From an uncultured Chloroflexia bacterium (GTDB lineage Bacteria > Chloroflexota > Limnocylindria > Limnocylindrales > CSP1-4), in contig CAWBMD010000002.1 in assembly GCA_963789865.1 (NCBI GenBank), positions 619,257 through 683,256 of the forward strand: a DNA stretch of 64,000 bases, read 5' to 3'. Below, in pieces: positions 10,553 to 30,018 of this stretch. The position numbers were made by a program, and so were the translations under genes. The notes beneath the pieces are model-generated. The model worked only from the letters and a program-made list of their open reading frames with translations, did not search any database and had not been told where the DNA came from. Positions within the stretch are counted from its first letter, which is position 1, and each line of letters begins with the position of its first letter.

Positions 10553-10639
10553 CGCGTGAGAACCTGTTGAGGGGAGCTCGCGTCGCACCGCGGCCTTCGT
10601 TGACCCCGCCGGCATGCCCCCCGACGGCGCGCCACCACC

Positions 10640-12672: not shown

Positions 12673-14425
12673 CGACCGCGCCGGAGACGACGGTGGACAC
12701 GTCCTCCGGCAGGAGGAACCAGCGGAGGAGTTCGAAGTCCGGGCCGACGGCGCCGTCCGGGATCGTCGGGACAACGAGAGGCCTCGGCGGCAGGGAGAGC
12801 AGGTCACGCGCCTCGTCCAGGTACTCCGCGAGGCGGGTCACGGGCTCGTGATGCCGGTGGGACGGCCAGGTCATGGACCCGTCGCCGTAGTGGATGTCGA
12901 CCAGGGACAGCGGCGGCTCCGCGCGACCGGCCCGATGACGCCAGAGCCCCGTCGCGGCGTCGAACGCGTAGTCCGGCAGCAGACGCCAGCCCTCGGATGC
13001 CACGAGGTCCACCGCGTCGAGGACGAACTCGAACACCGCCTCGCTGATGAAGTAGTTGAAGTTCACCCGCACCCAGCCCGGCTTGATCCCCTCGCAGCCG
13101 CGGGCGATCTCGCGCTCGAACTCGTGGCTGGTCTCCGGGTCGATGCCCAGCAGCCGGTGACCGTACGGCCCGGCACACGAGCAGCCGCCGCGGGACTGGA
13201 TCCCGAACAGGTCGTTGAGCAGCGCGACCACGAAGTTGTGGTGCAGGTAGCGCCCATCCCGGCGGACGACAAAGGAGACGATCGACAGGCGCTCCGCCTG
13301 GTGGCTGCCGAGGATCTCGATGCCCGGGTTCGCCTCCCAGCGGTGGAGGGCGCGGCCGATGAAATCCTCCTCCCGCTCGCGGATCGCGTCCACGCCGACG
13401 GCTGCCTTGAGCTGGAACACGAGGCCCGCGCGGATTGACTCCACGATCGCAGGGGTGCCGCCCTCCTCGCGATGCTCGATGTCCGTGAGGTAGACGTGCT
13501 CCTCGGGGTTGACATATGCGACGGTGCCGCCGCCGGGCATCGACGGGACGCGATTCCGGAACAGGTCGCGGCGCGCGACGAGGACGCCGGGCGTGCCGGG
13601 GCCGCCGATGAACTTGTGGGGACTGATGAACACCGCGTCCTTGCAGGCAAGCGGGTCGTCGGCCGGGTCCATGTCGATCGCGACATACGGGGCCGCGGCC
13701 GCGAAGTCGAAGAACGAGAGCGCGCCGTGCTCGTGGAGGAGCCGGGAGATGGCGGCCGTGTTCGAGACGATGCCGGTCACGTTGGAGGCGGCCGAGAAGC
13801 TGCCGATCCTCAGCGGGCGTCCCTCGTACCGGACCAGCTCGTCGGCCAGCTGGTCGAGGTCGATCTCGCCGTCACGGTCCTCGTGGATCGTGACCACGTC
13901 GGCGATCGACTCCCGCCACGGGAGCTCGTTGCTGTGGTGCTCGTAGGGCCCGATGAACACGACGGGACGCTGGTCTGCCGGGATGTGCTGGCGGAGATCC
14001 CACCGGTCCGCGAGGTCCGCGGGCAGGCGCAGCTGGAGCACGTCCACGAGACGGTTGATCGCGGCCGTGGAACCGGAGCCCACGAAGATCACGGCGTGAC
14101 GGGCCGGATCTCCGCCCACGCCCTCGAGGACCAGCCGCCGCGCCTCCTCGCGGAATCGGCTCGTCTGGAGGCCCGTGCCGGAGGACTCCGTGTGCGTGTT
14201 CGCGTACAGCGGCAGGACCGCCTCGCGGATGTAGTCCTCGATGAACGAGAGGCTGCGGCCGGATGCCGTGTAGTCAGCGTACGTCACGCGCCGCATGCCG
14301 TATGGACCGGCGACCGCCTCGTCCTCGCCGATGACCGAGGCGCGGATCAGCTCGACGAGCGAGTTCGAGCCCGGCCGATCGCCGTCGTGGCGGTGCGGGC
14401 GAGCGGGCGCGGCGATCGGCTCCAT
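12665..14425 (-). CDS. Aminotransferase class V-fold PLP-dependent enzyme (large 586-aa cysteine-desulfurase-like family)
   Basis: Intact ORF with YANTHTESSGTG, SFSAASNVTG and the PLP-lysine context FISPHKFIGGPGTPG. Confidence 0.85.
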   Translation of the reverse strand: MEPIAAPARPHRHDGDRPGSNSLVELIRASVIGEDEAVAGPYGMRRVTYADYTASGRSLSFIEDYIREAVLPLYANTHTESSGTGLQTSRFREEARRLVLEGVGGDPARHAVIFVGSGSTAAINRLVDVLQLRLPADLADRWDLRQHIPADQRPVVFIGPYEHHSNELPWRESIADVVTIHEDRDGEIDLDQLADELVRYEGRPLRIGSFSAASNVTGIVSNTAAISRLLHEHGALSFFDFAAAAPYVAIDMDPADDPLACKDAVFISPHKFIGGPGTPGVLVARRDLFRNRVPSMPGGGTVAYVNPEEHVYLTDIEHREEGGTPAIVESIRAGLVFQLKAAVGVDAIREREEDFIGRALHRWEANPGIEILGSHQAERLSIVSFVVRRDGRYLHHNFVVALLNDLFGIQSRGGCSCAGPYGHRLLGIDPETSHEFEREIARGCEGIKPGWVRVNFNYFISEAVFEFVLDAVDLVASEGWRLLPDYAFDAATGLWRHRAGRAEPPLSLVDIHYGDGSMTWPSHRHHEPVTRLAEYLDEARDLLSLPPRPLVVPTIPDGAVGPDFELLRWFLLPEDVSTVVSGAVDG

Positions 14426-14482
14426 CGTGCCGAGCAGTCTAGGGGATGGACACCTGCAGGCGGGAGCGAGGGGCCTGCCCGG

Positions 14483-15937
14483 CTACGGCACCATCGCCGG
14501 GGCTAGGTCCTTGTAGCGGTAGCGGTCGAGGTCCACGTTGCCGCTGATCCCGGGCACGGTGCCGCTGGACGTGTACTGCCAGAACGTCCACCCCTCGCCG
14601 GCCCAGTTGGAGGCGGGCATCGTCGGCTGGGACGCGGTCGTCCAATGTGCGATCCACAACACCTGGTAGCCGCTCAGGGCCAATGTGGCCGTGTTGCCCA
14701 TGTACGTGGACCAGAACGACGGCGAGACGTAGATCGCCCCGCGGACGCCCGAGCGCTGGTAGACCCGGTCCATGAAGGTTTGGACCCATGCCTGGAGGTC
14801 GGTGACCTTGAGCCCCCCCGAGGTCTCGAGGTCGAGCACGGGGAGCAGGTCACCCTTCGCCGGCGTCGCGGTGTCGACGAAGTGGTCCGCCTCGGCGATC
14901 GCGTCACCAGGCGTCGCGTCCGGGCGCGCGAAGTGGTAGGCGCCAACCGGGATCCCTGCGGCCCTGGCCTGGGCGCGGTTTGCGGGGTACGAGGTGTCGA
15001 CGAACATCGTGCCGTTGGTGATCAGCCCGTCGGTCGCCTTCAGGAATGCGAACCTCTTGCCGGCCTTCGCGACGAGCGGCCAGTTGATGGTCCCCTGCCA
15101 GTGGCTGACATCGATCCCCTCGACCCAGGTCGGCGCTGGGGTCGCGGTGGGCGTGGGCGCGGGGGTGGGCTTGGGGGCGGGCGTGGGAGCGGCCGTCGGC
15201 GCGGGGGTGGGCTTCGGGGTCGGAACCGGCGAGGAGGCGGTATCGGTCGGCGCCCGGAACAGGCCCTTGGCTCCGTAGAGGACGGCGACCCCGTACAGCG
15301 CCTTGACCGTCTTCCCGTTGATGGAGGCGATCTGGTACCACGCCGTGCCGGTCGCGGCGGCGGCTCCGCATGTGGCGCTCCAGCGCGTCCCGGTGACCGT
15401 TCCGGTCGCGACGACCAGCGCGCCGGCCGCAAGCCGGGCCTTCGCGGTCGCGGTCGTGGAGGGACCCGTGCGGAGGTTGACGCCGGAGCAGGCGGCTGCG
15501 AGGTTGACCGGTGCGACGTATGTGCGAAACAGGCCGGTTGCGGCATAGAGATAGGTGACCCCGTAACGGGCCTTGACGGATACCCCGTTGATCGACGAGA
15601 TCCGGAACCAGCGGTTCCCCGAGACGCCGCCCCCGCAGCTGGAGGCCCATCGGCCGCCCGTCACGGTGGCCGACGCGACGACCCGGGTCCCGGCCGGAAC
15701 CTTGACCCGCACGCGCGCAGATGTGGATGCGCCGGTCCGGAGGTTGGCCACGCATTTCGCCTGGAGCGTCGTGGCGGCGAGCGCCTGCGACGGTCCGGAA
15801 CCCAGCGCCGCGGTGAGCACGAGGGCGACCGCCACCAGGACGGCAACCATCGCCGGCCGGGTCCGATGGACGGCAATCGGCCGGGCGGCGACTGCCGTCG
15901 CGGCAGGGAGCGGCGAGCGGCTGTCGGGCACGGGCAT
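14483..15937 (-). CDS. Secreted GH25 muramidase with two N-terminal SH3b-like repeats and a PT-rich linker
   Basis: Signal/TM MVAVLVAVALVLTAALG. A duplicated approx 85-aa module (..NLRTG.S....). Linker PVPTPKPTPAPTAAPTPAPKPTPAPTPTATPAPT. Catalytic domain GIDVSHWQGTINW..DLDRY. Confidence 0.85.
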   Translation of the reverse strand: MPVPDSRSPLPAATAVAARPIAVHRTRPAMVAVLVAVALVLTAALGSGPSQALAATTLQAKCVANLRTGASTSARVRVKVPAGTRVVASATVTGGRWASSCGGGVSGNRWFRISSINGVSVKARYGVTYLYAATGLFRTYVAPVNLAAACSGVNLRTGPSTTATAKARLAAGALVVATGTVTGTRWSATCGAAAATGTAWYQIASINGKTVKALYGVAVLYGAKGLFRAPTDTASSPVPTPKPTPAPTAAPTPAPKPTPAPTPTATPAPTWVEGIDVSHWQGTINWPLVAKAGKRFAFLKATDGLITNGTMFVDTSYPANRAQARAAGIPVGAYHFARPDATPGDAIAEADHFVDTATPAKGDLLPVLDLETSGGLKVTDLQAWVQTFMDRVYQRSGVRGAIYVSPSFWSTYMGNTATLALSGYQVLWIAHWTTASQPTMPASNWAGEGWTFWQYTSSGTVPGISGNVDLDRYRYKDLAPAMVP

Positions 15938-16103: not shown

Positions 16104-16568
16104 GTGTCCCGCCTGTACTCGCTCGACGATGCCAACGCCATGATTCCAGACGTCGCGGTGGTCACCGGTCGCCTCCGTGACCAGCGTGCCGAGCTGGTCG
16201 GGATCCGCGACGCATACCGGGATCGCGAGGGCATCCTGATCGAGGAGATGATCGCCGAGGGATCCTCATCGGCACCCGTCACGGAGCCGCTGGACGGTGA
16301 CGACCCCGAGCTCAGACGCCTGCGCCTCAGGATGCGCGGCCTCGTCGACCAGATGCAGGCTGACGTCGCCTGGCTGGACGAGCGCGCCATCGTCCTCCGC
16401 GAGATCTCGTCGGGTCTCCTCGACTTCCCCGCCCTCGTCGGCGGAGAGGAGGCGTGGCTCTGCTGGCGGCTGGGCGAGGATCGCGTGGGCTGCTGGCACC
16501 GGACGGACGAGGGCTTTGCCGGCCGTCGGCCGCTCGCCGCGGTCCCGGACGACCCGGCCCGAGCCTGA
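16104..16568 (+). CDS. DUF2203 family protein
   Basis: Tail of ORF 15573..16568 from the GTG: VSRLYSLDDANAMIPDVAVVTGRLRDQRAEL.. ..GLLDFPALVGGEEAWLCWRLGE. Confidence 0.7.
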   Translation: MSRLYSLDDANAMIPDVAVVTGRLRDQRAELVGIRDAYRDREGILIEEMIAEGSSSAPVTEPLDGDDPELRRLRLRMRGLVDQMQADVAWLDERAIVLREISSGLLDFPALVGGEEAWLCWRLGEDRVGCWHRTDEGFAGRRPLAAVPDDPARA

Positions 16569-16597
16569 CCGGGCGGCCTCGCCGCTACACTCGCCTC

Positions 16598-17059
16598 ATG
16601 TCCAAGCCAAGCCCGGCAGACCCCCGACGCGACCCGAGGCCTGCTGCCCGGCCCGGGCGAATCTGGCAGGGCGACCGCCAGAAGGCCTATCGCCCGCTCG
16701 CCCTGGCGCCGCGGCGCGCCGCGTTCGAGGCCGGCCTCGCCGCCTACGACCGCGGCGACTTCTTCGATGCCCACGAGGCCCTCGAGCCGGCCTGGATGGG
16801 CACGGACGACCTCGAGGAGCGCGCCCTCCACCAGGGCCTGATCAAGGTCGCCGCAGCCTATGTCCACGCCGTCCGCGGCAACCCCGAGGGGATCTCGAAG
16901 AACCTGGCGGGCGCCCGCCGCCACCTCGCGCTCGCGGGGACGTCCGGCACCCGCTGGGGCATCGACGTGCCCAGGCTGATCGCCGACGTCGACGCTCGTC
17001 TCGAGCGTCCGGACCTCGCTCTCGCCGCGCCCGTGATCCGGAGGACCGAACCCACATGA
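16598..17059 (+). CDS. DUF309 domain protein
   Basis: ORF 16454..17059 trimmed to MSKPS. Hallmark FEAGLAAYDRGDFFDAHEALEPAWMG .. LHQGLIKVAAAYVH. Confidence 0.75.
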   Translation: MSKPSPADPRRDPRPAARPGRIWQGDRQKAYRPLALAPRRAAFEAGLAAYDRGDFFDAHEALEPAWMGTDDLEERALHQGLIKVAAAYVHAVRGNPEGISKNLAGARRHLALAGTSGTRWGIDVPRLIADVDARLERPDLALAAPVIRRTEPT

Positions 17060-17424
17060 ACCGCCCCCAGGCGATCCCCGCGCTCGACCCGCTGTACGCC
17101 GACATCCGTCGCCGCGATCCCGTCCGCCCCGCGGTCATGCTCGACGTTCGCGAGCGTGACGAGTTCATGTCCGTCCGGATCGAAGGCTCGCTGTTCATCC
17201 CCATGTCCCAGCTGGGCGTCCGCCTCCAGGACATCCCGAGAGACCGGCCGATCATGGTCATCTGCGCATCGGGCAGCCGGTCGGTGAGCGCGACGGGGTA
17301 TCTCCTGTCCGCGGGCTGGGAGGACGTCGGCTCGGTGGCCGGCGGCATCTCCACGTGGGAGCGGATGGGCCTGCCGGTCAAGCGCGGCCCCGTCGAGCCG
17401 GGCGAGGGACAGCTGGCGGGCTGA
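17056..17424 (+). CDS. Rhodanese-like sulfurtransferase domain protein
   Basis: MNRPQAIP.. with the active-site loop VICASGSRS. The start overlaps the upstream stop (ATGA). Confidence 0.85.
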   Translation: MNRPQAIPALDPLYADIRRRDPVRPAVMLDVRERDEFMSVRIEGSLFIPMSQLGVRLQDIPRDRPIMVICASGSRSVSATGYLLSAGWEDVGSVAGGISTWERMGLPVKRGPVEPGEGQLAG

Positions 17425-17565: not shown

Positions 17566-19032
17566 TCAGCCCTTGCGGTTGCCGCGACGCCGCTTGTCGA
17601 GGAAGGCGCGGACCTTCTCCTTGTGCGCGAAGGCCCACCCGACGAACAGCAGCAGGATGAAGTTGACCGCGCCCACGGTGGCCGCGTTGAGGTAGCCGAT
17701 CTGCTGGCCGACCTCGCCGTCCAGCTTGAGCGCCGGGATCGTCATCCCGAGGATGCCGAGCTGGAAGAACGGCGGCTGCGGGGCCAGGTTGGCGCGCGCC
17801 GCGCTGGCCGGTGAGCCCGGCGCGTCGTGCGGCCGCCGAGGATGAACGCCGTTCGACCCGGACGCCACCCCGCCGCCGCCCTCGAGCCCCTCGCCCAGGT
17901 TGAGCTGGGGCAGGTTGTTCCAGGCGGCGATGACGCCGTTCGGCGTCGGGGACGGCCCACCAGGTCTCGGGCTTCGGGCCCGACGGCGTCGGCGCCGCCC
18001 TGGACGTAGATCACGCCGTTGGCGGTGAAGCCGGCCATGTTCGGTCCGGGCGGCCGGCAGGTTCGTCTGCGCGCTGACCCGCCACGATTCGATGACGTTC
18101 GGGTCCTTGGCCGTCGCGGCGGGCCACCGCCGACCAGGCCCTGCTGGACCGTGGCGACCGGCGCTGCCCGAGAGGTTCCGGCCGCCGATGACGAAGATGA
18201 CGTCGCCGACGCGCATCGGCGACGCCGTCGACGTTCTCCTCGAACAAGCGGCCGCTGCGCCACCCACGGCTGCCATGCGCGCCGGTGAGGGCCTTGAGGC
18301 TCTTCCAGACGCTGCGGGTGGGTGCCGTGCCGTCGGTGCCGCCGACGACCACGATGCCCGTCCGAGACCGCGACGGCGCTGCGCGCCGGCCCGCGGCTCG
18401 GGCAGGGCCAGCGCGTCCTCGGTCTTCCACGTCGCCCAGCGTCCCGTCGTTGCCGATCGTCAGGCTGTAGGTGGTGGTGGTCGGGCTTGCCGTCGGGGCC
18501 GTAGCCGCCGATGACGTAGAGCGTGTTGCCCAGCACGACGTAGGCGGCGTCGGACCGCGCCTCGGGGAGCGCCGGGCCCTCCGACCACTTGTCGAGGTTG
18601 CCGAGGCCGACCGCGTGCGAGACGTACGTGGTCGCCACGGCCGCCTTGCCGTCGCTGCCGCCGGCGTAGAGGTATGTCGTCCCGATGAGGGCGGCCGCGC
18701 CGTCGGTCCGCGCCGGCCGGGAGCTGGATCTCGGCCGGCGACGGGTGCCACGGGAGGGTCGCGCCGAGCGGCGCGGGACACGGCAGGGTCTCGTTCTCGG
18801 GCGGGCAGAGGTTGACCGGCGACCAGACGAGCACGCCGATGTCGACGGTCTTCTGGACCGTGAAGTAGTAGGCGCGGTCGGGGATGTAGGCGAGCAGGAT
18901 GATGATCAGGACGAACCAGCCGAACGCCTTGACGATGGCCCAGGGCCAGCCGTCGGCGTCGAACAGGCCGAAGAACGCGCGGCGGCGGGCGGGCGGCACG
19001 ACGCGCGGGGCGGGGAGAGCGGTCTGTGCCAT
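17566..19032 (-). pseudogene. Kelch-repeat beta-propeller protein with N- and C-terminal TM helices; multiple frameshifts in this sequence
   Basis: The pieces sit in four overlapping minus ORFs. 18460..19032 holds MAQTALP..WFVLIIILLAYIPDRAYYF. 17742..18638 holds ..GNTLYVIGGYGPDGKP. 18011..18781 holds TTTTYSLTIGNDGTLG..IVVVGGTDG. 17566..18276 holds ..VIFVIGGRN.. and the C-terminal TM AVNFILLLFVGWAF. Confidence 0.7.
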
Positions 19033-19035
19033 CGC

Positions 19036-20132
19036 TCAGCCCCCGACCTTCAGCGTGCCGGTCATGTTCGGGTGCACCGAGCAGACGAACGTGTAGGCGC
19101 CGGCGGCCAGGGCCGGGACGTTGTACGTGGTCTTGGCGGGCCCGGTGATGATGTCGCCCTTGAACACGCGTCTGGCCGTTCGCGTCCTTGATCTCGATGT
19201 TGTGCGGGATGCCGCTGTCCTGGTTGTCGAACGTCGATCTGGAAGGCGGCGTCGGCGGGAGCGCTGCAGGGCCGGGGTGCCGAACGCGATGTTGAGCGCC
19301 GCCTGGTTGAGCGACGGCGCCGCCGGGCGCGGGCGAGGCGCCGGGGCGACCCGAGGCGCCGGGGCGCCGGAGGCACCCGGGGCGCCGGACGCCGCCGGGC
19401 GTGGTGAACTCGTCCGACCAGCAGGCCGGGTAGGGCGTGGCGCCCGGCGCCGGCTGTGTAGGCCGGGTCCACCCAGCCCTGGAACGTCTTCTCCTTGCCC
19501 GTGACCTTGTCGATGACCGGCTCGAACAGGCCGGGATCCAGGACGCGGTAGGTGCTGGTCTTCTCGGCCCGGATGAACGCGATCAGGTTGTCGATCTGCT
19601 TGTAGTTGAGCGGGCCCGGCCGGGTTCCCGGTGTTCGACCAGACGGGCATGATGCTGTTCGGGTTGCCGCAGGCGTACCGGCCGCCCACCTGGAGCATGT
19701 TCCGGATGTAGTCCGGGTTCAGGTGCGCGAACAGCTTCTCCTGGCTGTTCAGCATCGGGCCCTTGCCGCCCTCGCCGTTGACGCCGTGGCACTGGGCGCA
19801 GTTGGCCTGGTAGATGTTGTAGCCGCGCTCGACGGCCGTGACCTGCTGCTGCTCGCGCGGCGGCCTCCAGGCGCGCCTGCGGACAGCCCGCCCGGCAGGC
19901 CGACCTCGTAGAAGTAGTAGACGATGACGAACAGGGCGACGATCGTGACGGCGAGGAAGCCCACCCAGCGCGCGCTCGCGGACTGGCGGACGATCTTCGC
20001 GGCGCGCTCGGGCGTCAGGTCGTTGCGGTGGGCCGACGGCGGCGCCGAGAAGCGCTCGGCCGGCACCGGGGCGGACGACGGCCGCGGAGCGGGCAGGCGC
20101 TCCTCGGGCGGGCGGCCGGTCTGGTCGGTCAT
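19036..20132 (-). pseudogene. Membrane-anchored monohaem cytochrome c fused to an amicyanin-like type-1 copper (cupredoxin) domain; several frameshifts in this sequence
   Basis: TM anchor WVGFLAVTIVALFVIVYYFY (ORF 19749..20132). Haem motif NCAQCHGVNGEGG upstream in the frame of ORF 19036..19755. Cupredoxin FQIDFDNQDSGIPHNIEIKD (pieced across frames) and the C-terminal YTFVCSVHPNMTGTLKVGG (Cys-x2-His-x2-Met). Confidence 0.75.
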
Positions 20133-20174
20133 CGGTCTCCTCGATGGGGGGACGTGCTGCGGGTCATGGGCGGG

Positions 20175-20851
20175 TCAGATGCACCCGGTGGGCGTGAGCG
20201 GCGGGATGATGCCCGGCTGGCCGACCGCGATGGGCAGCGGGCCGAGCGTGATCTTCCCGGTGTTGATCGTGAGGACGCCGGCGGAGTCGACCGTGGTCGC
20301 GAAGCGGTCCATGCCGCGCGGCGCGGGCCCGTACGTCGGACCGGCGGCCTTGATGCCGAGCCGGTCGTAGCGCGACCCGTGGCAGGGGCACTCCATCCAG
20401 AAGTTCTTCAGGCACGGGTTGGGCTTGCAGCCGAGGTGCGGGCAGCGCTGGTAGAGCGCGCGGACGTTGACGGCGGTGCCGTCGCCGGTGAGGTCCGTCG
20501 CCCTCGATGAACCGCTGCTGGGACGGGTCCACCAGCACGACGAACGCCTTCGCGGACGAGACGTACGCCGGGAAGCCCTGGTTGATCGGCAGCGTGGAGT
20601 TCGCCGCTCATGATCTCGTCCAGCGTGCCGACGCGGACGAGGCCGCCGAACTTGCCCGCGAGGTTCGGCCACAGGAAGCCGATGGTGCCGGCGGTCACCT
20701 CGAGCAGCCAGAGGCCCATGCCCGCGGCGAGCGATCCCCGGAGGAGCTCGCGCCGGGAGATCCCCTGGACCTGCTCGTGGCGGATGGCCTTGAGGGCCTC
20801 CGTGGTCAGCGCCTGCGGCTTGCTGGCCGGCTCGACCTGGTAGTTGCTCAT
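20175..20851 (-). pseudogene. Rieske [2Fe-2S] subunit with Tat signal; two frameshifts in this sequence
   Basis: ORF 20408..20851 (..ISRRELLRGSLAAGMGLWLL..) joins ORF 20164..20538 (VLVDPSQQRFIEG) and then ORF 20175..20672 (CPHLGC..CPCHGSRYD). Junctions are near 20600 and 20505. Confidence 0.85.
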
Positions 20852-20870
20852 GCGCTCGGATCCCTTCCGA

Positions 20871-21494
20871 TCAGAGGGCGAAGTGGAAGCCCGGCGTCCC
20901 GATCGAGAAGAACTCGAGGTACGGGATGACGAACGAGTAGCCGGGGCCCCGGAAGAAGATCCCGACGAAGGTGACGAACAGGCCCAGCGTGCAGAACAGC
21001 GAGAACAGGACGACGGCGGTCTTCCGGTCCGAGGGCCGGATGGCGCGGATGTCGCCGCGGTCGATGAACGGCATCAGGGCGGCGCCGACCAGCACGAACG
21101 TCGGGACGAGCACGCCGGCGACGGTCGGGTGGAAGTAGGCCAGCAGCTCCTGGAGGCCCAGGAAGTACCAGGGGGCCTTGGCGACCGCCGGCGTGATGTT
21201 GCCGTTGGCCAGGTCCTCGAGCGGCGCGTTCACGAACAGGCCCATGAGGAGCAGGAAGATGCTCATCAGCGCCGCGGCCATGAACTCGATCGTGAGCAGG
21301 TGCGGCCAGGTCATGACCGTGTCGTCGGGTTCCTTCTGGACCCGGACGACCGCGTCCTGCTTGACCAGCGCCAGCAGGCGGTACGGGCGCGCCGACATCG
21401 GCACGCGCTGCTTGTCGATCTCGGTGCGCCGCGTCGGGTCGACGGGCAGGACCACGCGGCCCTCGGGCGGCGCCTTGGTCTCGGTGTCAGCCAT
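20871..21494 (-). CDS. Cytochrome b C-terminal domain protein (b6f subunit IV-like)
   Basis: Intact ORF with ..[16 protein letters not shown].. and three TM helices. Confidence 0.85.
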
Positions 21495-21512
21495 CGGTCG
21501 TCGTTCCTCGGC

Positions 21513-22242
21513 TCAGAGCGGGCCGCTGATCCCGCCGTCCTTCCGGATCCGCCAGAAGTGGACGGCCAGGAAGATCGCGGCGACCAGCGGGAACACCATG
21601 ATGTGGAGCACGTAGAACCGCAGCAGCGTGTTCTGGCCCACCTCGATGCCGCCCAGCAGGAGCAGCTTGGACGGCGTGTTGAACAGCGGCGCGTAGCCGG
21701 CCATGTTGGTGCCGATCGTGATGGCCCAGTACGCGATCTGGTCCCACGGGCAGCAGGTAGCCGGTGAAGCTGAGCATGATCGTCAGGAACAGGAGGACCA
21801 CCCCGACGACCCAGTTGAACTCGCGCGGCGGCTTGTAGGCCCCGTGGTAGAAGACCCGCATCATGTGCAGGAACACGAAGAACACCATGAGGTGGGCGGC
21901 CCACCGGTGGATGTTCCGTGTCAGCAGGCCGAAGACCACGCGGCTCTGGATGTCCAGGATGTTCGAGTAGGCCTGTGTCTCCGACGGGATGTAGAAGAAC
22001 ATCAGGTAGACGCCGGTGACCGTCAGCACGAGGAACAGGAAGAAGCTGAGGCCGCCGAGGCAGAACGTGTAGGCGAACTTGACCGCGTGCTGCCTGACCC
22101 GCACCGGGTGCAGGTGCAGGAACACGTTGTTCATGACCGCGTACGCCCGCGACCGCTCGTCGTCGGGGTACGGGTTGCGGAAGATCGACCGCCAGACGGG
22201 GCTCCGCCTGATGGTCTGGTCGACCCGCTCGAGGAAACTCAC
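21513..22242 (-). pseudogene. Cytochrome b6-type (N-terminal dihaem cytochrome b domain); one frameshift in this sequence
   Basis: ORF 21487..22242 (..[30 protein letters not shown]) continues in the frame of ORF 21513..21704 ([31 protein letters not shown]). There is an extra base in the run 21748-21750. Confidence 0.85.
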
Positions 22243-24076
22243 CGGGCTCCTCCTGCCACGCCGGCCGTCCCGGCGAGTTGTGCATCACGATACGACTCCT
22301 TGTAGAGCCGCCCGTCGCTCGAGATCTCCTGGAGCTCGAACCTCTCCATGGTGATGGCATCGAAGGGGCACCGCTTCACGCACAGGGCGCAGCGGATGCA
22401 CCGCTCCTCGTCGAGGATCATGGCCGCACCCTGCGACCAGCCGTAGGCCTCCTCGATCTCGGGCAGCAGGCCCTCGGTCTTGAGCTGGTTCACGTCCACC
22501 ATGTGGATGACCCCCTCCGGGCACACGTCGGCGCAGGCGCCGCAGAGCACGCACCGGAACGGGTCGAACCAGATGTTGTAGTTGCACATCAGGCAGCGCG
22601 TGGACTCGGCCACCGCCGCCGTTGCGTCGTAGCCCAGCTCCACCGGGGTGGTGAAGTTGACCGCCGGGTCCGTGGACGGCATCCGCGCCGGCAGGTCCAC
22701 CATCGGGATGTGCTGCCGCGGCAGGACGTCGTACAGCTCCGGCATGTCGTGGCGCCAGGAGCTGGTGATCTTCACGTTCGGGGTGACGGTCACGTCCGTC
22801 CGGCCGTCGAGGTAGCGGTCGATCGCGTAGGCGGCCTTCTTGCCGTGGCCGGCCGACTCGATCAGGGTGGTGGGGCCGGTCACGAAGTCGCCGCAGGCGA
22901 ACACGCCGCGGATGTTGGTGGCGTAGGTCGCCGGGTCCACCTTGAGCCGCCCGCGGTTGACCTCGAAGCTCGCCTCCACGGGCAGGAACGAGAGGTCCGC
23001 GGCCTGGGAGACGGCCGGGATGACCGTGTCCGCCGGCACGACGAACTCGGAGCCCTCGATGGGCACCGGCGAGCGGCGGCCCGAGGCGTCCGGCTCGCCC
23101 AGCTTGTTGCGGATGAACCGCACGCCGGTGAGCCTGCCGTCCTCGCCGATCAGCTCGATCGGGCTGACCAGGAAGTCGAGGGTCACGCCCTCGCGCTCGG
23201 TCTCGCCCAGCTCCTCCTCGTCCACGACCAGCTCGGACCGCGTGCGCCGGTAGGCGATCGTGACGTGCTCGGCGCCGTGGCGGAGGCTGGTGCGCGAGCA
23301 GTCCATCGCCGTGTAGCCGCCGCCGATGACGACGACGTGCCGGCCGACCGACAGCTCCTGGCCGAGGTTCGCCTTCTTCATGAAGTCGATGCCGTACTGG
23401 ACGCCCTCGAGGTCCGCGCCGGGCAGGTCCAGGTAGACCGGGTTCATCGCGCCCGCGCGTGATCGCGATCGCGTCGAAGTCCCGCTGCAGGTCCGCGAAC
23501 GGGATGTCGACGCCGATGGTGGTGTCGAACTGGAACGTGACGCCCAGGCGCTCGACCAGGCGGACGTCCATCTCGATCGCCTCGCGCGGCAGGCGGAACG
23601 CCGGCACGCCCGATGAGCATCGTGCCGCCGCCGTACGGCAGGCTGTCGTAGACGGTGACCTGGTAGCCGCGCGTCGCGAGCTCCCGCGAGACGGCGAGAC
23701 CGGCCGGGCCGGCGCCGACCACCGCGACCCGCTCGGCGCGGGGCGTGATCGCGGGCATGACGTCCGGGATGCCCGACGCCTCGTGCCACTCGACGAGGAA
23801 CCGCTTCATGGCGCGGATCGCGAGCGGGCGGTCGATGTCGCCGCGGCGGCAGGCGCGCTCGCACGGGGCCGAGCAGACGTAGGAGCACATCGCCGCGACG
23901 GGATTGGGCTCGCGGGCGAGGATGTACCCCTCCTCGAACCGGCCTTCGGCGGCGAGGTTGAGGTAGCCCCGGCAGTTGGTGCCGACGGGGCAGGCCTCCT
24001 GGCACTCGATGTTGCACTGGAGCCAGGAGGCGTCGACCGGCTGGACGAGGAACTCCTGGGTCTGGTCGAGGGTCAC
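22239..24076 (-). pseudogene. GltD-like FAD/NAD(P)H oxidoreductase with N-terminal Fe-S cysteine clusters and a C-terminal 2x[4Fe-4S] ferredoxin domain; two frameshifts in this sequence
   Basis: GTG 24076: VTLDQTQEF..CNIECQEACPVGTNC..CSYVCSAPCERAC..VAVVGAGPAGLA (ORF 23444..24304). Then VPAFRLPREAIE (ORF 22285..23607). Then VVVIGGGYTAMDC..FACGDF..CLMCNYN..CVLCGACADVCP..CIRCALCVKRCP (ORF 22239..24182). The stop overlaps the cyt b6 start. Confidence 0.8.
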
Positions 24077-24355
24077 GAAGGGGACACGCCTCTTCTGCGG
24101 GGGGCACGGCAGGGCGACGGGAGACCGACGGCGGGATGGCCGCCGACCCGCGGAATGTACCAAGCCCGGGCCACCCGTGCACAGCGATCGGCGCCGATCG
24201 ACGCCTCGAGGCATGACGAGGGGCCGATCGCCCGCCCCGACCGCCGAATGGCGTCGCCCGGGTCGGCGATACGGCGCCCGGGGCGTCGCCACCGGGCTCG
24301 GCAAATCGGATGGCCCGGGCGCGCGCGCCCTGCGCGCGCGACCTGCGCGCGCGAG

Positions 24356-24384
24356 TTGACGTGGGCAGCGAGCGCAGCTACGCT
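24356..24384 (+). promoter_or_regulatory. Sigma70-like promoter candidate TTGACG-N17-TACGCT
   Basis: Read directly. It lies about 43 nt upstream of the GTG 24427 start and is preceded by the direct repeat CTGCGCGCGCGA x2 (24329-24355). Confidence 0.35.
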
Positions 24385-24426
24385 GGCGGCATCGCCGACC
24401 CGGTCCCGGGTCCGCAAGGGAGAACC

Positions 24427-26325
24427 GTGAACTCGTCCGAGATCGCCTTCCTGGCCCTCGGCCTCGTCCTCGGCGGCGCGCTCGGCGCGGCGTTCCTGGC
24501 GGCCGTCCGGACCCGCCCCGCCCGCCCGGCGCGAGGTCCGGATCACGATCACCCCGAACGCGATCGGCGGCCGCAGGTCCGCCACCCTGTCCGACGCGAT
24601 GGGCGGGCCCGCCTATCGTCGGCCGATCGGGTCGCCGGACGATGACGCCTGGCCGGACCGTCCGGACACGATTCCGGCGGTCGCGGTCGCGGTCGCGGTC
24701 CCGTCATCGTCCGCTTCGGCTGACCTCGACATGCGTACACGCGTTCCATTTGCCCCGGCCCATGTGGCCGCCCGTGCCGTGCCGCCGGCGATCGACACGG
24801 GTCCGGCCACCGCCGTCGCAGCGGGCGTCACGGTCGACACGTTCCGCAGCCCCGGTCTCGCGACGCTGCCGTCCGCCTCGGCCGACCGCGCGGCGCCGGC
24901 CGAGGCCGTGTCGGCCCGGTCGGCGGTCGGGGTGGCCGAACGACCCGCGGCGCGTCGCGGTCGCGGTCGCCGAGCCCCGCACGCCGGCCGCCGTCCTGGA
25001 CATCGGGGCGTCGTCGGAACGGCTGGTCCGGCCGCGACTCCCGGCGGAGGATGCCCGGCCGACCCTCGCGGAAGCTGCAGTCGCGGTCGCCCTCGCGCAG
25101 GACGGTGGCGACGCGGGAGCCGCGCCGGACGCGTCACCGATTGAGCCGGCGACCGGCGCTCCCCGTGCGGCCTCCACGAGCGGGCCGGCGGACCCGTGCG
25201 GGGCCTCACGCGCGGCGATGGACGAGCGATGTACGACGGCCACCGGCATGCGCGAACGGTCCCGGGCCGCGGCAACCGCCGCCCGGGACGCCCAGCGGGC
25301 GTACGAGGTGCTCGGCGACGAGGTCGACCGGGCACGGGAGCTGTCCGATCCCAGGACGATCGCGGCGACGAAGACGGCCCTGCGGGACCAGTTCCGCGTG
25401 GAGGAAGGGGCGGCGAAGACCCCAGACGAATCCGAGTCGGCCGCACGCCGGTGGCTCCAGAGCATCAACGAGGCGAACGAGGCCGTTCGGGCGGCTCGCC
25501 GCCTCATGGAGGCGGGTGCGGCGGAGCTGCGCGATCGCGCGCTCGAGGTCGATCGTCTCGCGCTGGATGCCGACGCGGCCCGGATCTCCGCGGAAGGAGC
25601 CGACGAGGCGTGCCGGGTGGCGCGCGACGAGCTTGCGCGGTGCGAGGAGGAGGTCGCCGCGAACGCCCCCGCCCCGGTTCCCGCGGAACCGCATCCATTC
25701 GCCGGCGTCTGGCCGACCGAGGAGGACCTGACGCCCATCCGGCCGACGCAGGGTGCGCCCGCAGACTCTCTCGCCGGGCAGTCGGCGATCCTGAAGCTGG
25801 TGCGCGGTGATCGGGCGGCCCTGGACCATGTCGTCGCCGCCGTGGCCGGCACGGACGCGGCGGCCGTCGCCGACTGGCAGATCCGGATCACGGCGCTCTC
25901 GGACGCGATCGTCGCGCGCGCCATCGAGGCGGGCTACCTGACCCTGCCGGACGGCCATCCGTTCTGGGGGCTGTTCTCGGACAAGGAGCAGCGCGAGATC
26001 ATCGAGGCGCTGTCCGCGCTCGGCTTCCGCTTCGATGGACTGGGCGGGTTCGCCGACGGAAGGGTGCCGGCGACGCGGGACCTGTCGCTCGCGGTCGGCT
26101 ACGCCGGCCTCGACCGGATGCGGATCCGGACCTGGCCGCGGGATGCGGAGATCACCGCGCTCTACTCGGAAGCGTCCGTGGCCGCGGACGCATGGCTGAT
26201 CTGGGCGGCGAACGACCTCGAGCTCGGTCCCCTGACCGAGCGCCCTGGGGCCGCGCGCCGTGGAGCTGGGACCGATCTGGGACGCGTGGGGCCGGGTCCG
26301 CCCCGCGCTGGTCGCCCCCGTCTGA
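24427..26325 (+). pseudogene. Hypothetical membrane-anchored protein (N-terminal TM, Ala/Pro-rich region, coiled coil, conserved-looking C-terminal globular domain); frameshifted in this sequence
   Basis: AAGGGAG RBS followed by the GTG: VNSSEIAFLALGLVLGGALGAAFLAAV (ORF 24310..24645). The body is in ORFs 24599..25144 and 24642..26705 (..RAYEVLGDEVDRARELS.. ..HPFWGLFSDKEQREIIEALSALGFRFDG..). The end is reconstructed as ..ELGPIWDAWGRVRPALVAPV* with TGA 26323-26325. Confidence 0.55.
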
Positions 26326-26353: not shown

Positions 26354-27169
26354 TCAATCTCCCTCGGCCTGCGCGCCGTCGGTGTCCGGTGGGGTCCCGT
26401 GCGTCGGGCCTTCCTCGTCGTCGGCCTCGATCACGATCACGCGGAACGCCTCGGCGGCGGCCACGCCGATCGGCTCGCCCTCCTCGCGCGCCCACTCGCG
26501 GATCCGTGTCTCGAGACTCTCCGGGTGCCGGATCTGGGAGGCATGCGCACGCAGGGCGTCGAGCTTGCGATCGATCGTCGGGGTGACGTCGACCCACGCG
26601 GACGCGTGGTTGGACCAGAAGAGGTACAGCCGGCGGACGACGTGCGGTGCCAGCCCGTCGCGGGCCAGCCAGGGGAACGACATCGCGTTGCGTGCCGCCG
26701 GGTAGACCGCATCGACCGCCGCGATGCCGGCGGTCCGGTGGTCGGCGTGGTTCACGCCCCCGTCCCGGTGGAAGATCGTCTCCGGGTCCACGGCCAGGAC
26801 CGCGTCGGGCCGGAACGTGCGGATCTCCCGGACCAGGTGCTCGCGGAGCGCGAGGTCGTTGGCCAGGGCGCCGTCGGGCTGGTGGAGGTAGGTCACGCCC
26901 TCGTAACCGACGATCGTCGCGGCGGCTCGCTGCTCGGTCTCGCGCACGGCGGCGAGCTCGAGCGGGTCCGTCTGCCAGTCATCGGCGCCCGCGTCACCGC
27001 TGGTGCAGCAGACGAGCCAGGCCGTCGAGCCGTCGTCGATCCAGCGGGCCGCCGTGGCCGCCGGCCCGAAGTCGGCGTCGTCCGGGTGCGCGACGATGAC
27101 CATGAATCGTTCTGGGCGCCAGGCGTGAGCGTGACGGCCGGCTGTCTCGGGCAACTTGCTGAACCTCAC
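26354..27169 (-). CDS. PIG-L family deacetylase (LmbE/MshB-like)
   Basis: VIVAHPDDADFG, HADH and HASQ motifs. Intact ORF. Confidence 0.8.
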   Translation of the reverse strand: MRFSKLPETAGRHAHAWRPERFMVIVAHPDDADFGPAATAARWIDDGSTAWLVCCTSGDAGADDWQTDPLELAAVRETEQRAAATIVGYEGVTYLHQPDGALANDLALREHLVREIRTFRPDAVLAVDPETIFHRDGGVNHADHRTAGIAAVDAVYPAARNAMSFPWLARDGLAPHVVRRLYLFWSNHASAWVDVTPTIDRKLDALRAHASQIRHPESLETRIREWAREEGEPIGVAAAEAFRVIVIEADDEEGPTHGTPPDTDGAQAEGD

Positions 27170-27293
27170 GGGTCTGGTTTGCGGAGGAGGAAGCGGTGTC
27201 CGGCGTTGCCACCGGACTGCAACCTTGTGCTAGATTTCCTGGCGAGGCTTCGCTCGTCTCCCCCCACGGGCGAAGCCTTTTCTGATGCCCGGG

Positions 27294-27794
27294 TCAGCCT
27301 CCCGGCGACGCGAGCCCTCCTGCGGCGTGCGCCTCGCGGATGGCCGCAAGCACGTCTGCAGCGTGTCCCTCCGCCTTCACCTGCGGCCAGGCGGCGGCGA
27401 CGCGTCCATCGGGCCCCACGAGGAAGCTCGAGCGGACGATCCCCATGAACGTCCTGCCGTCTTTCGTCTTCTCCCGCCACGCCCCGTACGCCTCGGCCAC
27501 CGCGTGGTCCTCGTCGGACAGGAGCGTGAACGGGAGGCCGAACTTGGCCCGGAAGGCGGCGTGGCTGGTGGAGCCGTCCGGGCTCACGCCCCACACGGCG
27601 GCGTCCAGCCCGGTGATGTCGGCATGGAGGTCCCGGAACTCGCAGGCCTCGGTGGTGCAGCCTGGCGTGTCGTCCTCGGGGTAGAAGTAGACGACGGTCC
27701 ACGCACCGCGGCGCTCGGCCAGGCGATGAATGGTGCCGTGCTCGTCGGGGAGTGCGACCTCGGGAGCCGGGTCGCCGACCATGGGCGTGCTCAT
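27294..27794 (-). CDS. bcp: Thioredoxin-dependent peroxiredoxin Bcp
   Basis: VVYFYPEDDTPGCTTEAC plus FTLLSDEDH. Intact ORF. Confidence 0.9.
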   Translation of the reverse strand: MSTPMVGDPAPEVALPDEHGTIHRLAERRGAWTVVYFYPEDDTPGCTTEACEFRDLHADITGLDAAVWGVSPDGSTSHAAFRAKFGLPFTLLSDEDHAVAEAYGAWREKTKDGRTFMGIVRSSFLVGPDGRVAAAWPQVKAEGHAADVLAAIREAHAAGGLASPGG

Positions 27795-28534
27795 GCCCGG
27801 GAGGATAACCTCGCCGGCGGAAGCGCGGTCTCAACCACCAGGAGCCGGCCGGACCGGACCGTGACCGAGGCGTCCGAGGCCTCCCGGACGTTGGACAGCC
27901 CGCGCGCGGGCCCGGTGGTCAGCGGCTCGTCCCGGAGCGGGTACGCGAGGCCGCGTGTCGTGATCCCGGCGACGTCGCCCCCGAAGGGCAGCAGCGTGAT
28001 CGTCGCGCCGATCGTGCCCGGCAGGGCACGGGTCACCGGCTCGCCGCCGGGTCCGGGAGCCCGCACGAGGAAGACCCGGGAACCGGCGTCGATCAGGTCG
28101 ACGGTGGCCGACGCGAGCGCCGGGTGGGCGAGGAGCCACAGGTTGGCGAGAGCATGATCCAGACGCGGGCCGCCGAACGCGCCGAGCACCGTGATCCGCG
28201 TCGCGCCCCGGGCGAGCGCTTCGAGCAGGGCCAGCTCGGCGTCCGACTCGTCCTTGTCGGCACGGGCACGCCGCACCGGGATTCCCTCGGTCTCCGCCGC
28301 CGCCACGAGGTCCGGGGACAGCGAGTCGAGATCGCCCACCAGGACGTCGGGCCGCAGCCCGAGGATCCGGGCCCTGGCGAGCCCGCCGTCGGCCGCGACC
28401 ACGTCCACGACGTCCGCGTCCCAGCCGGGCCACGCGGCATCGAGCGCCGCTCGCACGGGCACGTCGCCGTCCGCCACCACGAGGGCATGGCGTCCGGCCG
28501 ATTCGACGGGGTCGCGGGGTGTCGTCATCGCCAT
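27791..28534 (-). CDS. Thiamine pyrophosphokinase
   Basis: Tail of ORF 27791..29452 from MAMTTPRD (alternative start 28528). Motifs VGDLDSL, KDESDAELAL and the C-terminal thiamine-binding module. The stop overlaps the bcp start. Confidence 0.8.
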   Translation of the reverse strand: MAMTTPRDPVESAGRHALVVADGDVPVRAALDAAWPGWDADVVDVVAADGGLARARILGLRPDVLVGDLDSLSPDLVAAAETEGIPVRRARADKDESDAELALLEALARGATRITVLGAFGGPRLDHALANLWLLAHPALASATVDLIDAGSRVFLVRAPGPGGEPVTRALPGTIGATITLLPFGGDVAGITTRGLAYPLRDEPLTTGPARGLSNVREASDASVTVRSGRLLVVETALPPARLSSRA

Positions 28535-28598
28535 CGGGCAGGATCGTACCGGGTCGCCGGTGCGGTCGGCCGTGCACGCGTCGTGTAGACTCGCAGCC

Positions 28599-29174
28599 GT
28601 GCCCGACACTCCCCTCCCCGCACCGACGCAGCGTGTCGTGGATGCCGCCGCCCGCAAGGGCGTGACGCTCGACGTGCACCTCTTCGCGGAGTCCACCCAC
28701 ACCGCCGAGGACGCGGCGGCGACCGTCGGGGCCGAGCTCGGCCAGATCGTGAAGTCGCTGGTGTTCGTCGCGCCGACCGACGCCGGCGGCCTTGAGCCGA
28801 TCCTGTGCCTCGTGTCCGGACCGAACCGCGTGGATCTCGCCCGCCTGGCGGCGGTCACGGGCGAGGCCGACATCCGGCGGGCCAACGCGGACGAGGTGAA
28901 GGAGCTGACCGGCTTCAGCATCGGCGGGATCCCGCCCATCGGCCACGGACGCTCGATCCGCGTCGTCATGGATCCCGACCTCGGGCGCTTCCAGGTGGTC
29001 TGGGCCGCCGCCGGGACACCAACCGCGGTGTTCCCCGTGGCACCGGCAACCCTGCGGATGCTATCCAACGCGCACGTCGCCCCGATCTGCGAGGAGCGCC
29101 GCCAGGCCGACGTCCTTGCCGAGAGCGCGGGCTTCGGGGGACCGGCAGCCGCGCCCCAGAACGCCGGCGCCTGA
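28599..29174 (+). CDS. YbaK/EbsC-type aminoacyl-tRNA editing (deacylase) domain protein
   Basis: GTG 28599 in ORF 28191..29174: ..IVKSLVFV.. ..TGFSIGGIPPIGH... Confidence 0.8.
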   Translation: MPDTPLPAPTQRVVDAAARKGVTLDVHLFAESTHTAEDAAATVGAELGQIVKSLVFVAPTDAGGLEPILCLVSGPNRVDLARLAAVTGEADIRRANADEVKELTGFSIGGIPPIGHGRSIRVVMDPDLGRFQVVWAAAGTPTAVFPVAPATLRMLSNAHVAPICEERRQADVLAESAGFGGPAAAPQNAGA

Positions 29175-29189
29175 TCCGGACCATCCCCG

Positions 29190-29762: not shown

Positions 29763-29848
29763 CCCGGAGGCATCCTCCCGCGGCCGTCGCCGTGGAAGCA
29801 GCGTGGACAAGTCGCACGGGATTGGGCGGTCGGGGGTGGATAAGTGCG

Positions 29849-29877
29849 TTGACCCCGTCCGGGTCGGCGCGTAGCGT
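29849..29877 (+). promoter_or_regulatory. Sigma70-like promoter candidate TTGACC-N17-TAGCGT
   Basis: Read directly in a locally GC-poorer intergenic region. It would give a 5' UTR of about 135 nt before GTG 30019. Confidence 0.35.
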
Positions 29878-30018
29878 TGAACCCAGCCCGAAGGTGCTGA
29901 GCGATGCTAACGGCTGCGATGACATCAAGGCCCACGCGTCGAGTAGGTTCCTTCGGGCGCTTGATTCCCGCGGGCCGCGGACCGGTGGGGTTCCGCGACC
30001 GACGGCTATCATCCCGGC

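Follow-up and report, generated by a model that had tools for sequence, protein, structure and literature searches.

The 64,000-nucleotide stretch of Chloroflexota DNA analysed here (the window) carries six co-directional genes that fill positions 17566-24076 of its minus strand exactly. In transcription order they encode an NfnB/GltD-like flavoprotein, a cytochrome b6-type protein, a subunit IV-type protein, a Rieske protein, a cytochrome c fused to a cupredoxin, and a membrane-anchored Kelch propeller (Table 1). The arrangement is far beyond chance. A plot of third-codon-position G+C (GC3) follows minus-strand coding without interruption from about 24080 to 17566, with the frame switching repeatedly, in a window of 72% G+C. 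Each window protein was stitched from the three-frame translation, in which we read directly a GTG start at 24076, the motif CAQCH, the copper-ligand motif CSVHPNM, the Kelch repeats and a stop at 17566. The profile searches that the original prediction had proposed matched Fer4_20, Pyr_redox_2 and two Fer4 domains, Cytochrome_B (in two fragments), Cytochrom_B_C, Rieske and, weakly, Cupredoxin_1 in the window's open reading frame fragments, and the Kelch families in orthologues.

The cassette is intact in six contigs from relatives (L001-L004, L085 and L086), some of them megabase-sized, and their flanks are alike too. Their products measure, in transcription order, 610-611, 242, 205-207, 224, 360-411 and 482-495 amino acids (aa), and their core proteins are 96-99% identical to those of the window. 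The junctions in L004 are an overlap of 4 nucleotides (nt) followed by gaps of 18, 19, 42 and 3 nt; because the flavoprotein and b6 genes overlap and the remaining gaps are short, the spacing is operon-like. Pfam matches, translation and intact relatives bear out the six co-directional genes that the original prediction had described, and motifs and intact orthologues bear out its anatomy of all six. A scan of the operon for consensus promoters and terminators found nothing, a result that is uninformative for a Chloroflexota genome of 72% G+C. By its closest proteins and loci the host belongs to Chloroflexota, class Limnocylindria, which rules out an actinobacterial origin and corrects the high-GC Gram-positive host that had been supposed. 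The best flavoprotein matches are labelled, where named, 'Chloroflexi bacterium' or 'Candidatus Limnocylindrales', and each of the best 120 listed, all cluster representatives, is at least 91% identical to the query.

Components of the cassette

The flavoprotein combines an N-terminal Fer4_20 iron-sulphur (Fe-S) domain, a Pyr_redox_2 domain and a C-terminal 2x[4Fe-4S] ferredoxin domain, and its stitched sequence is 99% identical over full length to an intact 611-aa protein (P0001). Its matches among solved structures are NfnABC (9bov, E=9e-108), NfnA (9n5u), Stn (8oh5), NfnB (4ylf, E=2e-85, and 5jca) and GltD (2vdc, E=1e-64), and its tail resembles the polyferredoxin FwdF (5t5i). Aligned with 19 relatives of 36-82% identity, it shows no variation in the cysteines of the four [4Fe-4S] clusters or in either glycine motif for nucleotide binding. 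By analogy with GltD and NfnB, the YRR that follows the second GGG-TAMD Rossmann motif suggests a preference for NADPH. We infer a cytoplasmic location because the sequence holds no signal peptide and no membrane helix. The NCBIfam models of GltD type all score below cutoff (TIGR01318, 267.7 against 483 bits; TIGR01317, 199.7 against 447.7; TIGR01316, 326 against 472), and no GltB, formate dehydrogenase catalytic subunit or NfnA partner lies in the operon neighbourhoods of the intact relatives. These scores and the lack of partner genes rule out GltD, NfnB or a 'formate dehydrogenase beta' as the identity of the flavoprotein.

Cytochrome b is split, with b6 and subunit IV encoded by separate genes. 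The b6 protein carries four histidines for two b haems, spaced as H-x13-H (helix B) and H-x14-H (helix D). Among PDB entries, chloroplast and cyanobacterial cytochrome b6 match it at E=9e-52, aligned from residue 59, and bc1 cytochromes b match as well. Its CLGG motif places Cys61 opposite b6 Cys35, the cysteine of haem cn. This cysteine and all four b-haem histidines are kept in Limnocylindria, Nitrospinota and Brocadia. The eight flavoprotein-linked cytochromes b6 in our alignment have an invariant histidine 18 positions ahead of the CxGG cysteine (His43 here, His62 in Brocadia); the proteins of Acidobacteriota and Zixibacteria, which lack the cn cysteine, keep it too. From AlphaFold3 models, Hauser et al. 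(PMC12954380) propose that His43/His62 bind one more haem b, located at the dimer interface and turned towards the flavoprotein. Subunit IV has a cytoplasmic N-terminal extension of about 60 residues, about three hydrophobic segments and the Qo motif APWY, and by this motif it would belong to the APWY clade, which spans several phyla, including Chloroflexi and Planctomycetes, and is uncharacterised (Kao and Hunte 2014, PMC4122944). It falls below the cutoffs of both NCBIfam cytb6_f_IV and ExtQ (54.5 against 150 for the latter).

The Rieske protein has a twin-arginine signal or anchor (SRRELL) and the cluster-binding boxes CPHLGC (box I) and CPCHGSRY (box II). Of all solved structures, 9rk4 and 9rk3 match it best; these are Kuste4569 and Kustd1480, with measured potentials of +303 mV and +335 mV, respectively (PMC12954380). 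Box II aligns with CPCHGSKY of Kuste4569 and has the serine and tyrosine of CPCHGS-Y, next to the cluster, in common with both anammox proteins, and from these residues we predict that the window protein is of the high-potential type.

In the fifth protein, a conserved 57-residue cytoplasmic tail and one membrane helix are followed by a class I haem c domain, a low-complexity linker of Ala, Pro, Ser and Gly, and a cupredoxin. Pfam finds Cytochrom_C, Cytochrome_CBB3 and Cupredoxin_1 in the intact orthologues, and the invariant residues include C111xxC114H115 and M161 for haem c and H308, C348, H351 and M354 for copper. The best sequence match of the cupredoxin domain is amicyanin (E=2e-5). Its AlphaFold2 (AF2) model, with a predicted local distance difference test score (pLDDT) above 90, also returns amicyanin as the best Foldseek match, together with auracyanin and plastocyanin. 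Because the NCBIfam amicyanin equivalog cutoff is missed (20 against 110), we call the domain amicyanin-like rather than amicyanin.

The Kelch gene begins 3-4 nt from the preceding gene and ends the operon, the next gene being convergent. AF2 models its product as a six-blade propeller (pLDDT about 90) with one transmembrane helix at each end (residues 29-49 and 435-464). The domain matches Kelch domains of the PDB at E=1e-13 and, by Foldseek at probability 1.0, KLHL3, KLHL12, LZTR1 and Keap1. Neither galactose oxidase nor NanM is among the top Foldseek matches, and NCBIfam mutarotase models score far below cutoff. Across 34 homologues of 62-97% identity, the transmembrane and juxtamembrane segments are nearly invariant. 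Its most likely role, proposed with low confidence, is that of a subunit without catalytic activity that serves for docking or as a scaffold at the outer face. Catalytic candidates were also considered, namely a galactose oxidase-like copper radical enzyme, a NanM mutarotase and a methylamine dehydrogenase-like partner of amicyanin; the six blades and the matches to protein-binding Kelch domains rule them out.

Table 1. Features of the operon and its surroundings in the window, with frame-shifting indels relative to the intact relative L004
Feature	Positions	Strand	Product	Frame-shifting indels	Basis or remark
NfnB/GltD-like FAD/NAD(P)(H) flavoprotein, predicted cytoplasmic	22239..24076	-	611 aa, frame-corrected	2 (~23608, ~23457)	GTG start 24076; Pfam and PDB matches
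Cytochrome b6-type four-helix cytochrome b	21513..22242	-	242 aa	1 (~21750)	Pfam Cytochrome_B; PDB b6 match
Subunit IV-type protein	20871..21494	-	207 aa, intact in window	0	Pfam Cytochrom_B_C
Rieske [2Fe-2S] protein	20175..20851	-	224 aa	2 (~20605, ~20499)	Pfam Rieske
Membrane-anchored monohaem cytochrome c fused to amicyanin-like type-1 copper domain	19036..20132	-	~362-368 aa	about 10-16	Pfam in orthologues
Extracytoplasmic six-blade Kelch beta-propeller	17566..19032	-	~483 aa	about 19	Kelch Pfam families in orthologues; PDB; AF2
Intergenic region between operon and divergent 684-aa gene	24077..24323				Expected site of operon promoter, from gene positions
Divergent gene	24324-26315	+	600-684 aa		Indel patch
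Rhodanese, DUF309 and DUF2203 genes	16104-17418	+			Clean stretch
GH25 gene	14483-15931				Indel patch
Clean stretch	26354-31061
GGDEF/GAF gene	31231-34123				Indel patch
Four genes unconnected to the operon	40343-41428; 42341-43810; 52577-55003; 55349-56950	+	Intact

Frame shifts in the window's copy

Placed by the GC3 frame plot and by alignment to L004, which is about 92% identical to the window at the DNA level, about 40 frame-shifting indels interrupt the window's operon, most of them one-base insertions. If these were real, the operon would be a string of pseudogenes in the window's strain and the module would be dead there. The patchiness of the frame shifts, which is unlike uniform sequencing error, speaks for that reading. 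Indels are missing from nine neighbouring genes and abound in the cytochrome c-cupredoxin, Kelch, GGDEF, 684-aa and GH25 genes.

The remaining evidence makes decay improbable. The ratio of non-synonymous to synonymous substitutions (dN/dS) relative to the intact relative is 0.018-0.28 across the genes (0.064 for the flavoprotein, 0.018 for b6), and purifying selection on the operon proteins is strong. Once its frame is corrected, the flavoprotein is nearly identical to an intact protein, as noted above. The indels are biased towards insertion and matched in composition, whereas real gene decay in bacteria favours deletions, and true decay is an implausible source of 19 indels in the Kelch gene, whose codons are constrained and whose substitution divergence is only 9%. 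Because relatives carry the intact cassette and dN/dS is as low as this, the breaks are most likely errors of assembly; judged from the sequences, the frame shifts are very probably an artefact, and the organism itself probably has a working operon.

In base composition the 63 single-base insertions agree with the genome, and the patchy distribution of the indels looks like incompletely polished long-read sequence. Error of the homopolymer type is not supported, as only 21 of the 63 extend an adjacent identical base. Against the 92%-identical relative, the patches lie between 14483 and 34123 and are separated by two clean stretches (Table 1). In a further locus from a public long-read metagenome-assembled genome (L007, MFD05513.bin.2.235; 7659-11168), the b6 and subunit IV matches share one open frame and the flavoprotein match is truncated, a sign that further deposited assemblies of the lineage may suffer from indel errors as well.

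Linkage across phyla and the route of electrons

With a profile of the flavoprotein subfamily we scanned one genome per species and then searched the best 80 loci for the other five proteins. Genes for b6 and subunit IV adjoin the flavoprotein gene in 22 of the 80, and 21 of these 22 also hold a Rieske match. The linked loci belong to Limnocylindria (6), Acidobacteriota (13; Terracidiphilus, Bryobacteraceae, Terriglobia), Nitrospinota (1), Zixibacteria (1) and Candidatus Brocadia sapporoensis (1). The linkage is absent from all 37 of the other, lower-scoring loci with at least 3 kilobases (kb) on both sides, most of which encode longer fusion proteins of Firmicutes, Dehalococcoidia and deltaproteobacteria. 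Gene order differs among the linked loci: flavoprotein, b6, subunit IV, Rieske in Limnocylindria; flavoprotein, Rieske, b6, subunit IV in Acidobacteriota; Rieske, b6, subunit IV, cytochrome c, flavoprotein in Nitrospinota; and Rieske, b6, flavoprotein, one further gene, subunit IV in Brocadia. Adjacency that is kept across five phyla despite such shuffling is the pattern expected of functionally coupled genes. In a crude neighbour-joining tree of 81 flavoproteins, which carries no support values and is read here for nearest neighbours only, the linked proteins form no single clean clade; they fall into one group of Limnocylindria, Brocadia and Nitrospinota and another of Acidobacteriota and Zixibacteria.

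The outer-side partners vary with lineage. An octahaem cytochrome accompanies the core in Acidobacteriota and Brocadia, a pentahaem cytochrome in Nitrospinota, two tetrahaem cytochromes in Zixibacteria, and a mono- or dihaem cytochrome, with neither cupredoxin nor Kelch protein, in the more distant Limnocylindria (L008-L010). Among the loci examined, no lineage besides the window's own sublineage of Limnocylindria has the cytochrome c-cupredoxin fusion or the Kelch gene. There they remain together down to 62-63% Kelch identity, which is weaker evidence since the whole neighbourhood is syntenic. Co-occurrence, which the original prediction had put forward as a check on the six-gene cassette, holds across phyla for the flavoprotein, b6 and subunit IV genes and, in all but one linked locus, for the Rieske gene; the Kelch and cupredoxin components are confined to one sublineage. 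Two acidobacterial loci (L014 and L020, ~9929-14500) encode a b6 with YLGS in place of the haem-cn cysteine and a longer subunit IV of 235-237 aa; an octahaem cytochrome c of 711-733 aa and then a monohaem protein follow, and a monohaem protein of 488-575 aa and a membrane protein of 203-221 aa lie upstream.

These data bear on whether the flavoprotein and the Kelch protein belong to the complex at all. Either or both might be mere neighbours, the flavoprotein a soluble enzyme of GltD or 'formate dehydrogenase beta' type and the Kelch protein an unrelated envelope protein, and JGI annotations such as 'formate dehydrogenase beta subunit' point that way. For the flavoprotein, the 4-nt overlap with the b6 gene, an adjacency that outlasts gene-order shuffling in five phyla, the lack of GltB, formate dehydrogenase or NfnA partners and GltD model scores far below cutoff all argue otherwise. 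For the Kelch protein, linkage within a single syntenic lineage whose whole neighbourhood is conserved, and its absence from L008-L010, favour a bystander; the 3-4 nt gap, the convergent next gene and the near-invariant transmembrane and juxtamembrane segments oppose it. On balance we regard this explanation as very improbable.

We propose, with moderate confidence, that the operon encodes one membrane complex, in which Rieske protein, b6 and subunit IV, flavoprotein, haem c-copper protein and Kelch subunit act together to oxidise quinol and split its electrons between copper and oxygen on one side and NAD(P)+ on the other. Its core would be a Rieske/cytochrome b6/subunit IV unit of the 'APWY' or 'subfamily G' type. 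The cytoplasmic side would carry the NfnB/GltD-like subunit, in which FAD and an NAD(P)(H) site are combined with four [4Fe-4S] clusters; the outer side would carry the tethered haem c and type-1 copper subunit and the Kelch propeller on its two helices. Menaquinol would be oxidised at Qo and its two electrons split there. The high-potential electron would pass from the Rieske cluster through haem c and copper to a terminal oxidase; the other would pass through haems bL and bH, by way also of haem cn, of an additional interfacial haem b on His43, or of both, into the Fe-S chain, FAD and NAD(P)+. Such quinone-based electron bifurcation would yield NAD(P)H from electrons at the quinol level at no cost in proton-motive force, in line with the proposal for the anammox complexes. 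With menaquinone its energetics are favourable overall (PMC12954380), and the subunits are reported to co-migrate in Kuenenia (PMC5600118, PMC12954380). The Kuenenia flavoprotein Kuste4570 was modelled on NfnABC (9bov/9bp5) and FwdF (5t5i) (PMC12954380), structural homologues that the window flavoprotein also matches.

Several points weigh against this proposal. Retention of the haem-cn cysteine suggests that a site for quinone reduction still works, and such a site would draw electrons away from NAD(P)+. Because Acidobacteriota and Zixibacteria keep the flavoprotein and lack the cn cysteine, members of the class differ in the electron route beyond bH. The extra haem b is itself a proposal from AlphaFold3 models, an aerobic heterotroph has no evident need of a route that reduces NAD(P)+, and to our knowledge the biochemistry of this class is limited to isolated anammox Rieske domains.

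Some of the same features suit a complex in which the flavoprotein is an electron input, passing electrons from NAD(P)H through FAD and the Fe-S clusters to haem cn and bH and on to quinone at an N-side site. The enzyme would then be an NAD(P)H-fed quinone reductase that boosts the Q cycle, or overall an NAD(P)H:cytochrome c/copper oxidoreductase, in a manner resembling the association proposed between ferredoxin-NADP reductase and chloroplast b6f. The haem-cn cysteine and the four b-haem histidines, kept in Limnocylindria, Nitrospinota and Brocadia, fit a functional N-side quinone site. NfnB/GltD modules are reversible, and an aerobic heterotroph would make NAD(P)H in excess rather than lack it. 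Such an input would, by the account of Hauser et al. (PMC12954380), waste about 250 mV that complex I could conserve. Paired with menaquinone, a Rieske protein of the high-potential type would point to a b chain of very low potential, fit for NAD(P)+ reduction, and acidobacterial members keep the flavoprotein without the cn cysteine. We consider this direction of flow unlikely, although it is the main rival to the proposal.

Full reversal is very unlikely. A high-potential periplasmic donor would feed electrons through copper, haem c and the Rieske cluster and, joined by low-potential electrons from NAD(P)H, they would reduce quinone (confurcation). The APWY motif is present at Qo, and Kao and Hunte (PMC4122944) proposed reverse running for the APWY clade, an idea based on one Geobacter gene cluster; the Kelch propeller could, speculatively, dock a periplasmic donor enzyme. 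The conserved neighbourhood holds no periplasmic dehydrogenase or lithotrophy gene, and there is no obvious gain in spending NAD(P)H to lift electrons from cytochrome c to quinone.

On a broader reading, which we think possible and somewhat unlikely, quinol-driven NAD(P)+ reduction by such complexes would be no oddity of anammox and would be widespread among abundant aerobic bacteria of soil (Limnocylindria, Acidobacteriota), giving a route from quinone-level donors to NAD(P)H that does not depend on proton-motive force. In Limnocylindria the tethered haem c-copper relay would then wire the high-potential branch firmly to oxygen respiration, and the Kelch protein would be a supernumerary subunit of a new kind, docking a terminal oxidase or another partner. 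Whether a Rieske/cytochrome b complex can bifurcate from its Qo site to NAD(P)+ has been an open question since 2013, approached only in slow-growing and difficult anammox bacteria. The presence of the flavoprotein-bearing core, under strong purifying selection, in very abundant soil lineages that are assumed to be aerobic widens the likely importance of the mechanism. The acidobacterial loci, assigned to genera or families with cultured members, are more tractable sources. The Limnocylindria version has the simplest outer side known for the class (one haem c, one copper, one propeller), which should ease reconstitution and structural work. The automatic names 'formate dehydrogenase beta subunit', 'glutamate synthase small subunit-like' and 'selenite/tellurite reduction ExtP' are misleading for these proteins.

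Among the neighbouring genes, the divergent gene upstream keeps its position in every relative examined (L003, L004, L085 and L086). Its product of 600-684 aa has no Pfam or NCBIfam match, and it could be related to the operon or merely syntenic. The rhodanese, DUF309 and DUF2203 genes point towards the operon's last gene and keep this place in all close relatives. A rhodanese-like protein also occurs in the Geobacter ext cluster, whose cytochrome b model matches the window b6; this may be coincidence. The four intact genes elsewhere in the window encode a WYL/WCX-domain regulator, an HD_assoc_2 protein (HD-associated region), an AAA/TPR (STAND-like) protein and a ferritin-like protein.

Relation to known systems

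The closest parallels are the anammox Rieske/cytochrome b complexes of Kuenenia that include an NAD(P) oxidoreductase subunit (Kuste4569-4574 and Kustd1480-1485; Kartal 2013; Hauser 2025, PMC12954380). In both systems cytochrome b is split into a b6-type protein, which bears the haem-cn motif, and subunit IV, and both have a stand-alone flavoprotein with four Fe-S clusters and the histidine proposed to bind haem b. The window's Rieske protein, predicted to be of the high-potential type, has Kuste4569 and Kustd1480 as its best solved-structure matches. The Brocadia flavoprotein, which lies in a Rieske/b6 cluster, is 40% identical to the window's over residues 6-583. The window operon, unlike the anammox complexes, has no hexa- or octahaem cytochrome c and no hydroxylamine oxidoreductase (HAO)-like subunit, and has one haem c-cupredoxin fusion and a Kelch protein instead. 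Its subunit IV, of 205-207 aa, is the shorter one and has about three hydrophobic segments where five helices are reported for anammox, and its gene order differs. The host is a member of Limnocylindria, whose closest relatives come largely from soil and sediment metagenomes and are assumed to live aerobically, in contrast to an anaerobic planctomycete. The Rieske structure matches and the Brocadia cluster support the anammox parallel drawn in the original prediction, and the single CxxCH, type-1 copper site and Kelch protein confirm that the periplasmic partners differ.

The statement that a GltD-like subunit had been discussed only for anammox proved too narrow. Dibrova et al. (2013/2017) had already described, far outside the planctomycetes, the joint occurrence of subfamily G cytochromes b and large NAD(P)-binding Fe-S oxidoreductases, Kao and Hunte (2014, PMC4122944) delimit an APWY clade of several phyla, Chloroflexi among them, and the present survey adds loci in Acidobacteriota, Nitrospinota and Zixibacteria. 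Compared by motif and gene context, the window operon shares with the subfamily G/APWY clade a short cytochrome b with CxGG, a subunit IV with APWY and a distribution over several phyla, including Chloroflexi. Because Dibrova et al. had reported the co-occurrence beyond anammox bacteria and planctomycetes, the core is of a known kind, biochemically uncharacterised. The 'uncharacterised respiratory module' that had been suggested is thus new on its cytochrome c-cupredoxin and Kelch side, in one sublineage only. The subfamily G/APWY papers, as far as their accessible text goes, make no mention of a Limnocylindria cassette, a cupredoxin fusion or a Kelch subunit, and in the wider literature we found no prior description of the cassette, of a haem c-cupredoxin fusion as outer subunit or of a Kelch subunit.

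Resemblance to b6f lies in the b6 match itself, the haem-cn cysteine, the 14-residue histidine spacing in helix D, the separate subunit IV and a copper protein as acceptor, which is plastocyanin in b6f and a tethered cupredoxin here. Reports that ferredoxin-NADP reductase binds b6f offer a loose functional parallel to the window flavoprotein. Unlike b6f, the operon has its own gene for an Fe-S flavoprotein, a Qo motif of APWY rather than PEWY and a b6 N-terminal extension, bearing His43, that does not align to b6. Neither cytochrome f nor the small subunits PetG/L/M/N were found in the operon or in the 8-10 kb flanks of the intact relatives. With NfnAB, the Bfu-type NfnABC, Stn and GltD, the flavoprotein has in common its NfnB/GltD fold, N-terminal Fe-S domain and two nucleotide-binding motifs. 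It differs in standing alone with its own 2x[4Fe-4S] tail, with membrane cytochromes as its partners and no NfnA, HydB-like or GltB protein nearby.

The Geobacter cluster ExtMNOPQS, with its Rieske protein ExtO, cytochrome b ExtP and ExtQ, is matched more loosely. The L004 b6 orthologue (L004:11833-12561) just passes the NCBIfam ExtP equivalog, at 297.5 bits against a cutoff of 290, and ExtQ is a weak match. The Ext cluster differs in its cytochromes of 4 to 12 haems, its porin and its rhodanese-like protein, and it has no flavoprotein (PMC5877670); the context that defines it (multihaem ExtM/N/S, porin ExtI, rhodanese ExtH) is missing from the operon neighbourhood in intact relatives. Actinobacterial QcrCAB (cytochrome bcc) and Firmicutes QcrABC (b6c), from bacteria of monoderm type, are likewise Rieske/cytochrome b complexes of the menaquinol type, and the window haem c weakly resembles the haem domains of QcrC. 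Actinobacterial QcrB is unsplit and its QcrC dihaem, and neither complex has a flavoprotein, a copper domain or a Kelch subunit. Window-type proteins score 113, 34 and 29 bits with the NCBIfam models bc1_QcrB, QcrA and QcrC_actin, against cutoffs of 500, 275 and 200. With the split cytochrome b and the lack of cytochrome f, these scores agree with the earlier distinction from actinobacterial QcrCAB and from b6f. Alternative complex III of Chloroflexus and Roseiflexus, with its auracyanin, offers a last parallel within Chloroflexota, a blue copper protein as acceptor of a quinol-oxidising complex, and auracyanins are among the Foldseek matches of the window cupredoxin. Its quinol oxidase is entirely different from the Rieske/b6 type of the window, where, moreover, the cupredoxin is fused to the haem c subunit.

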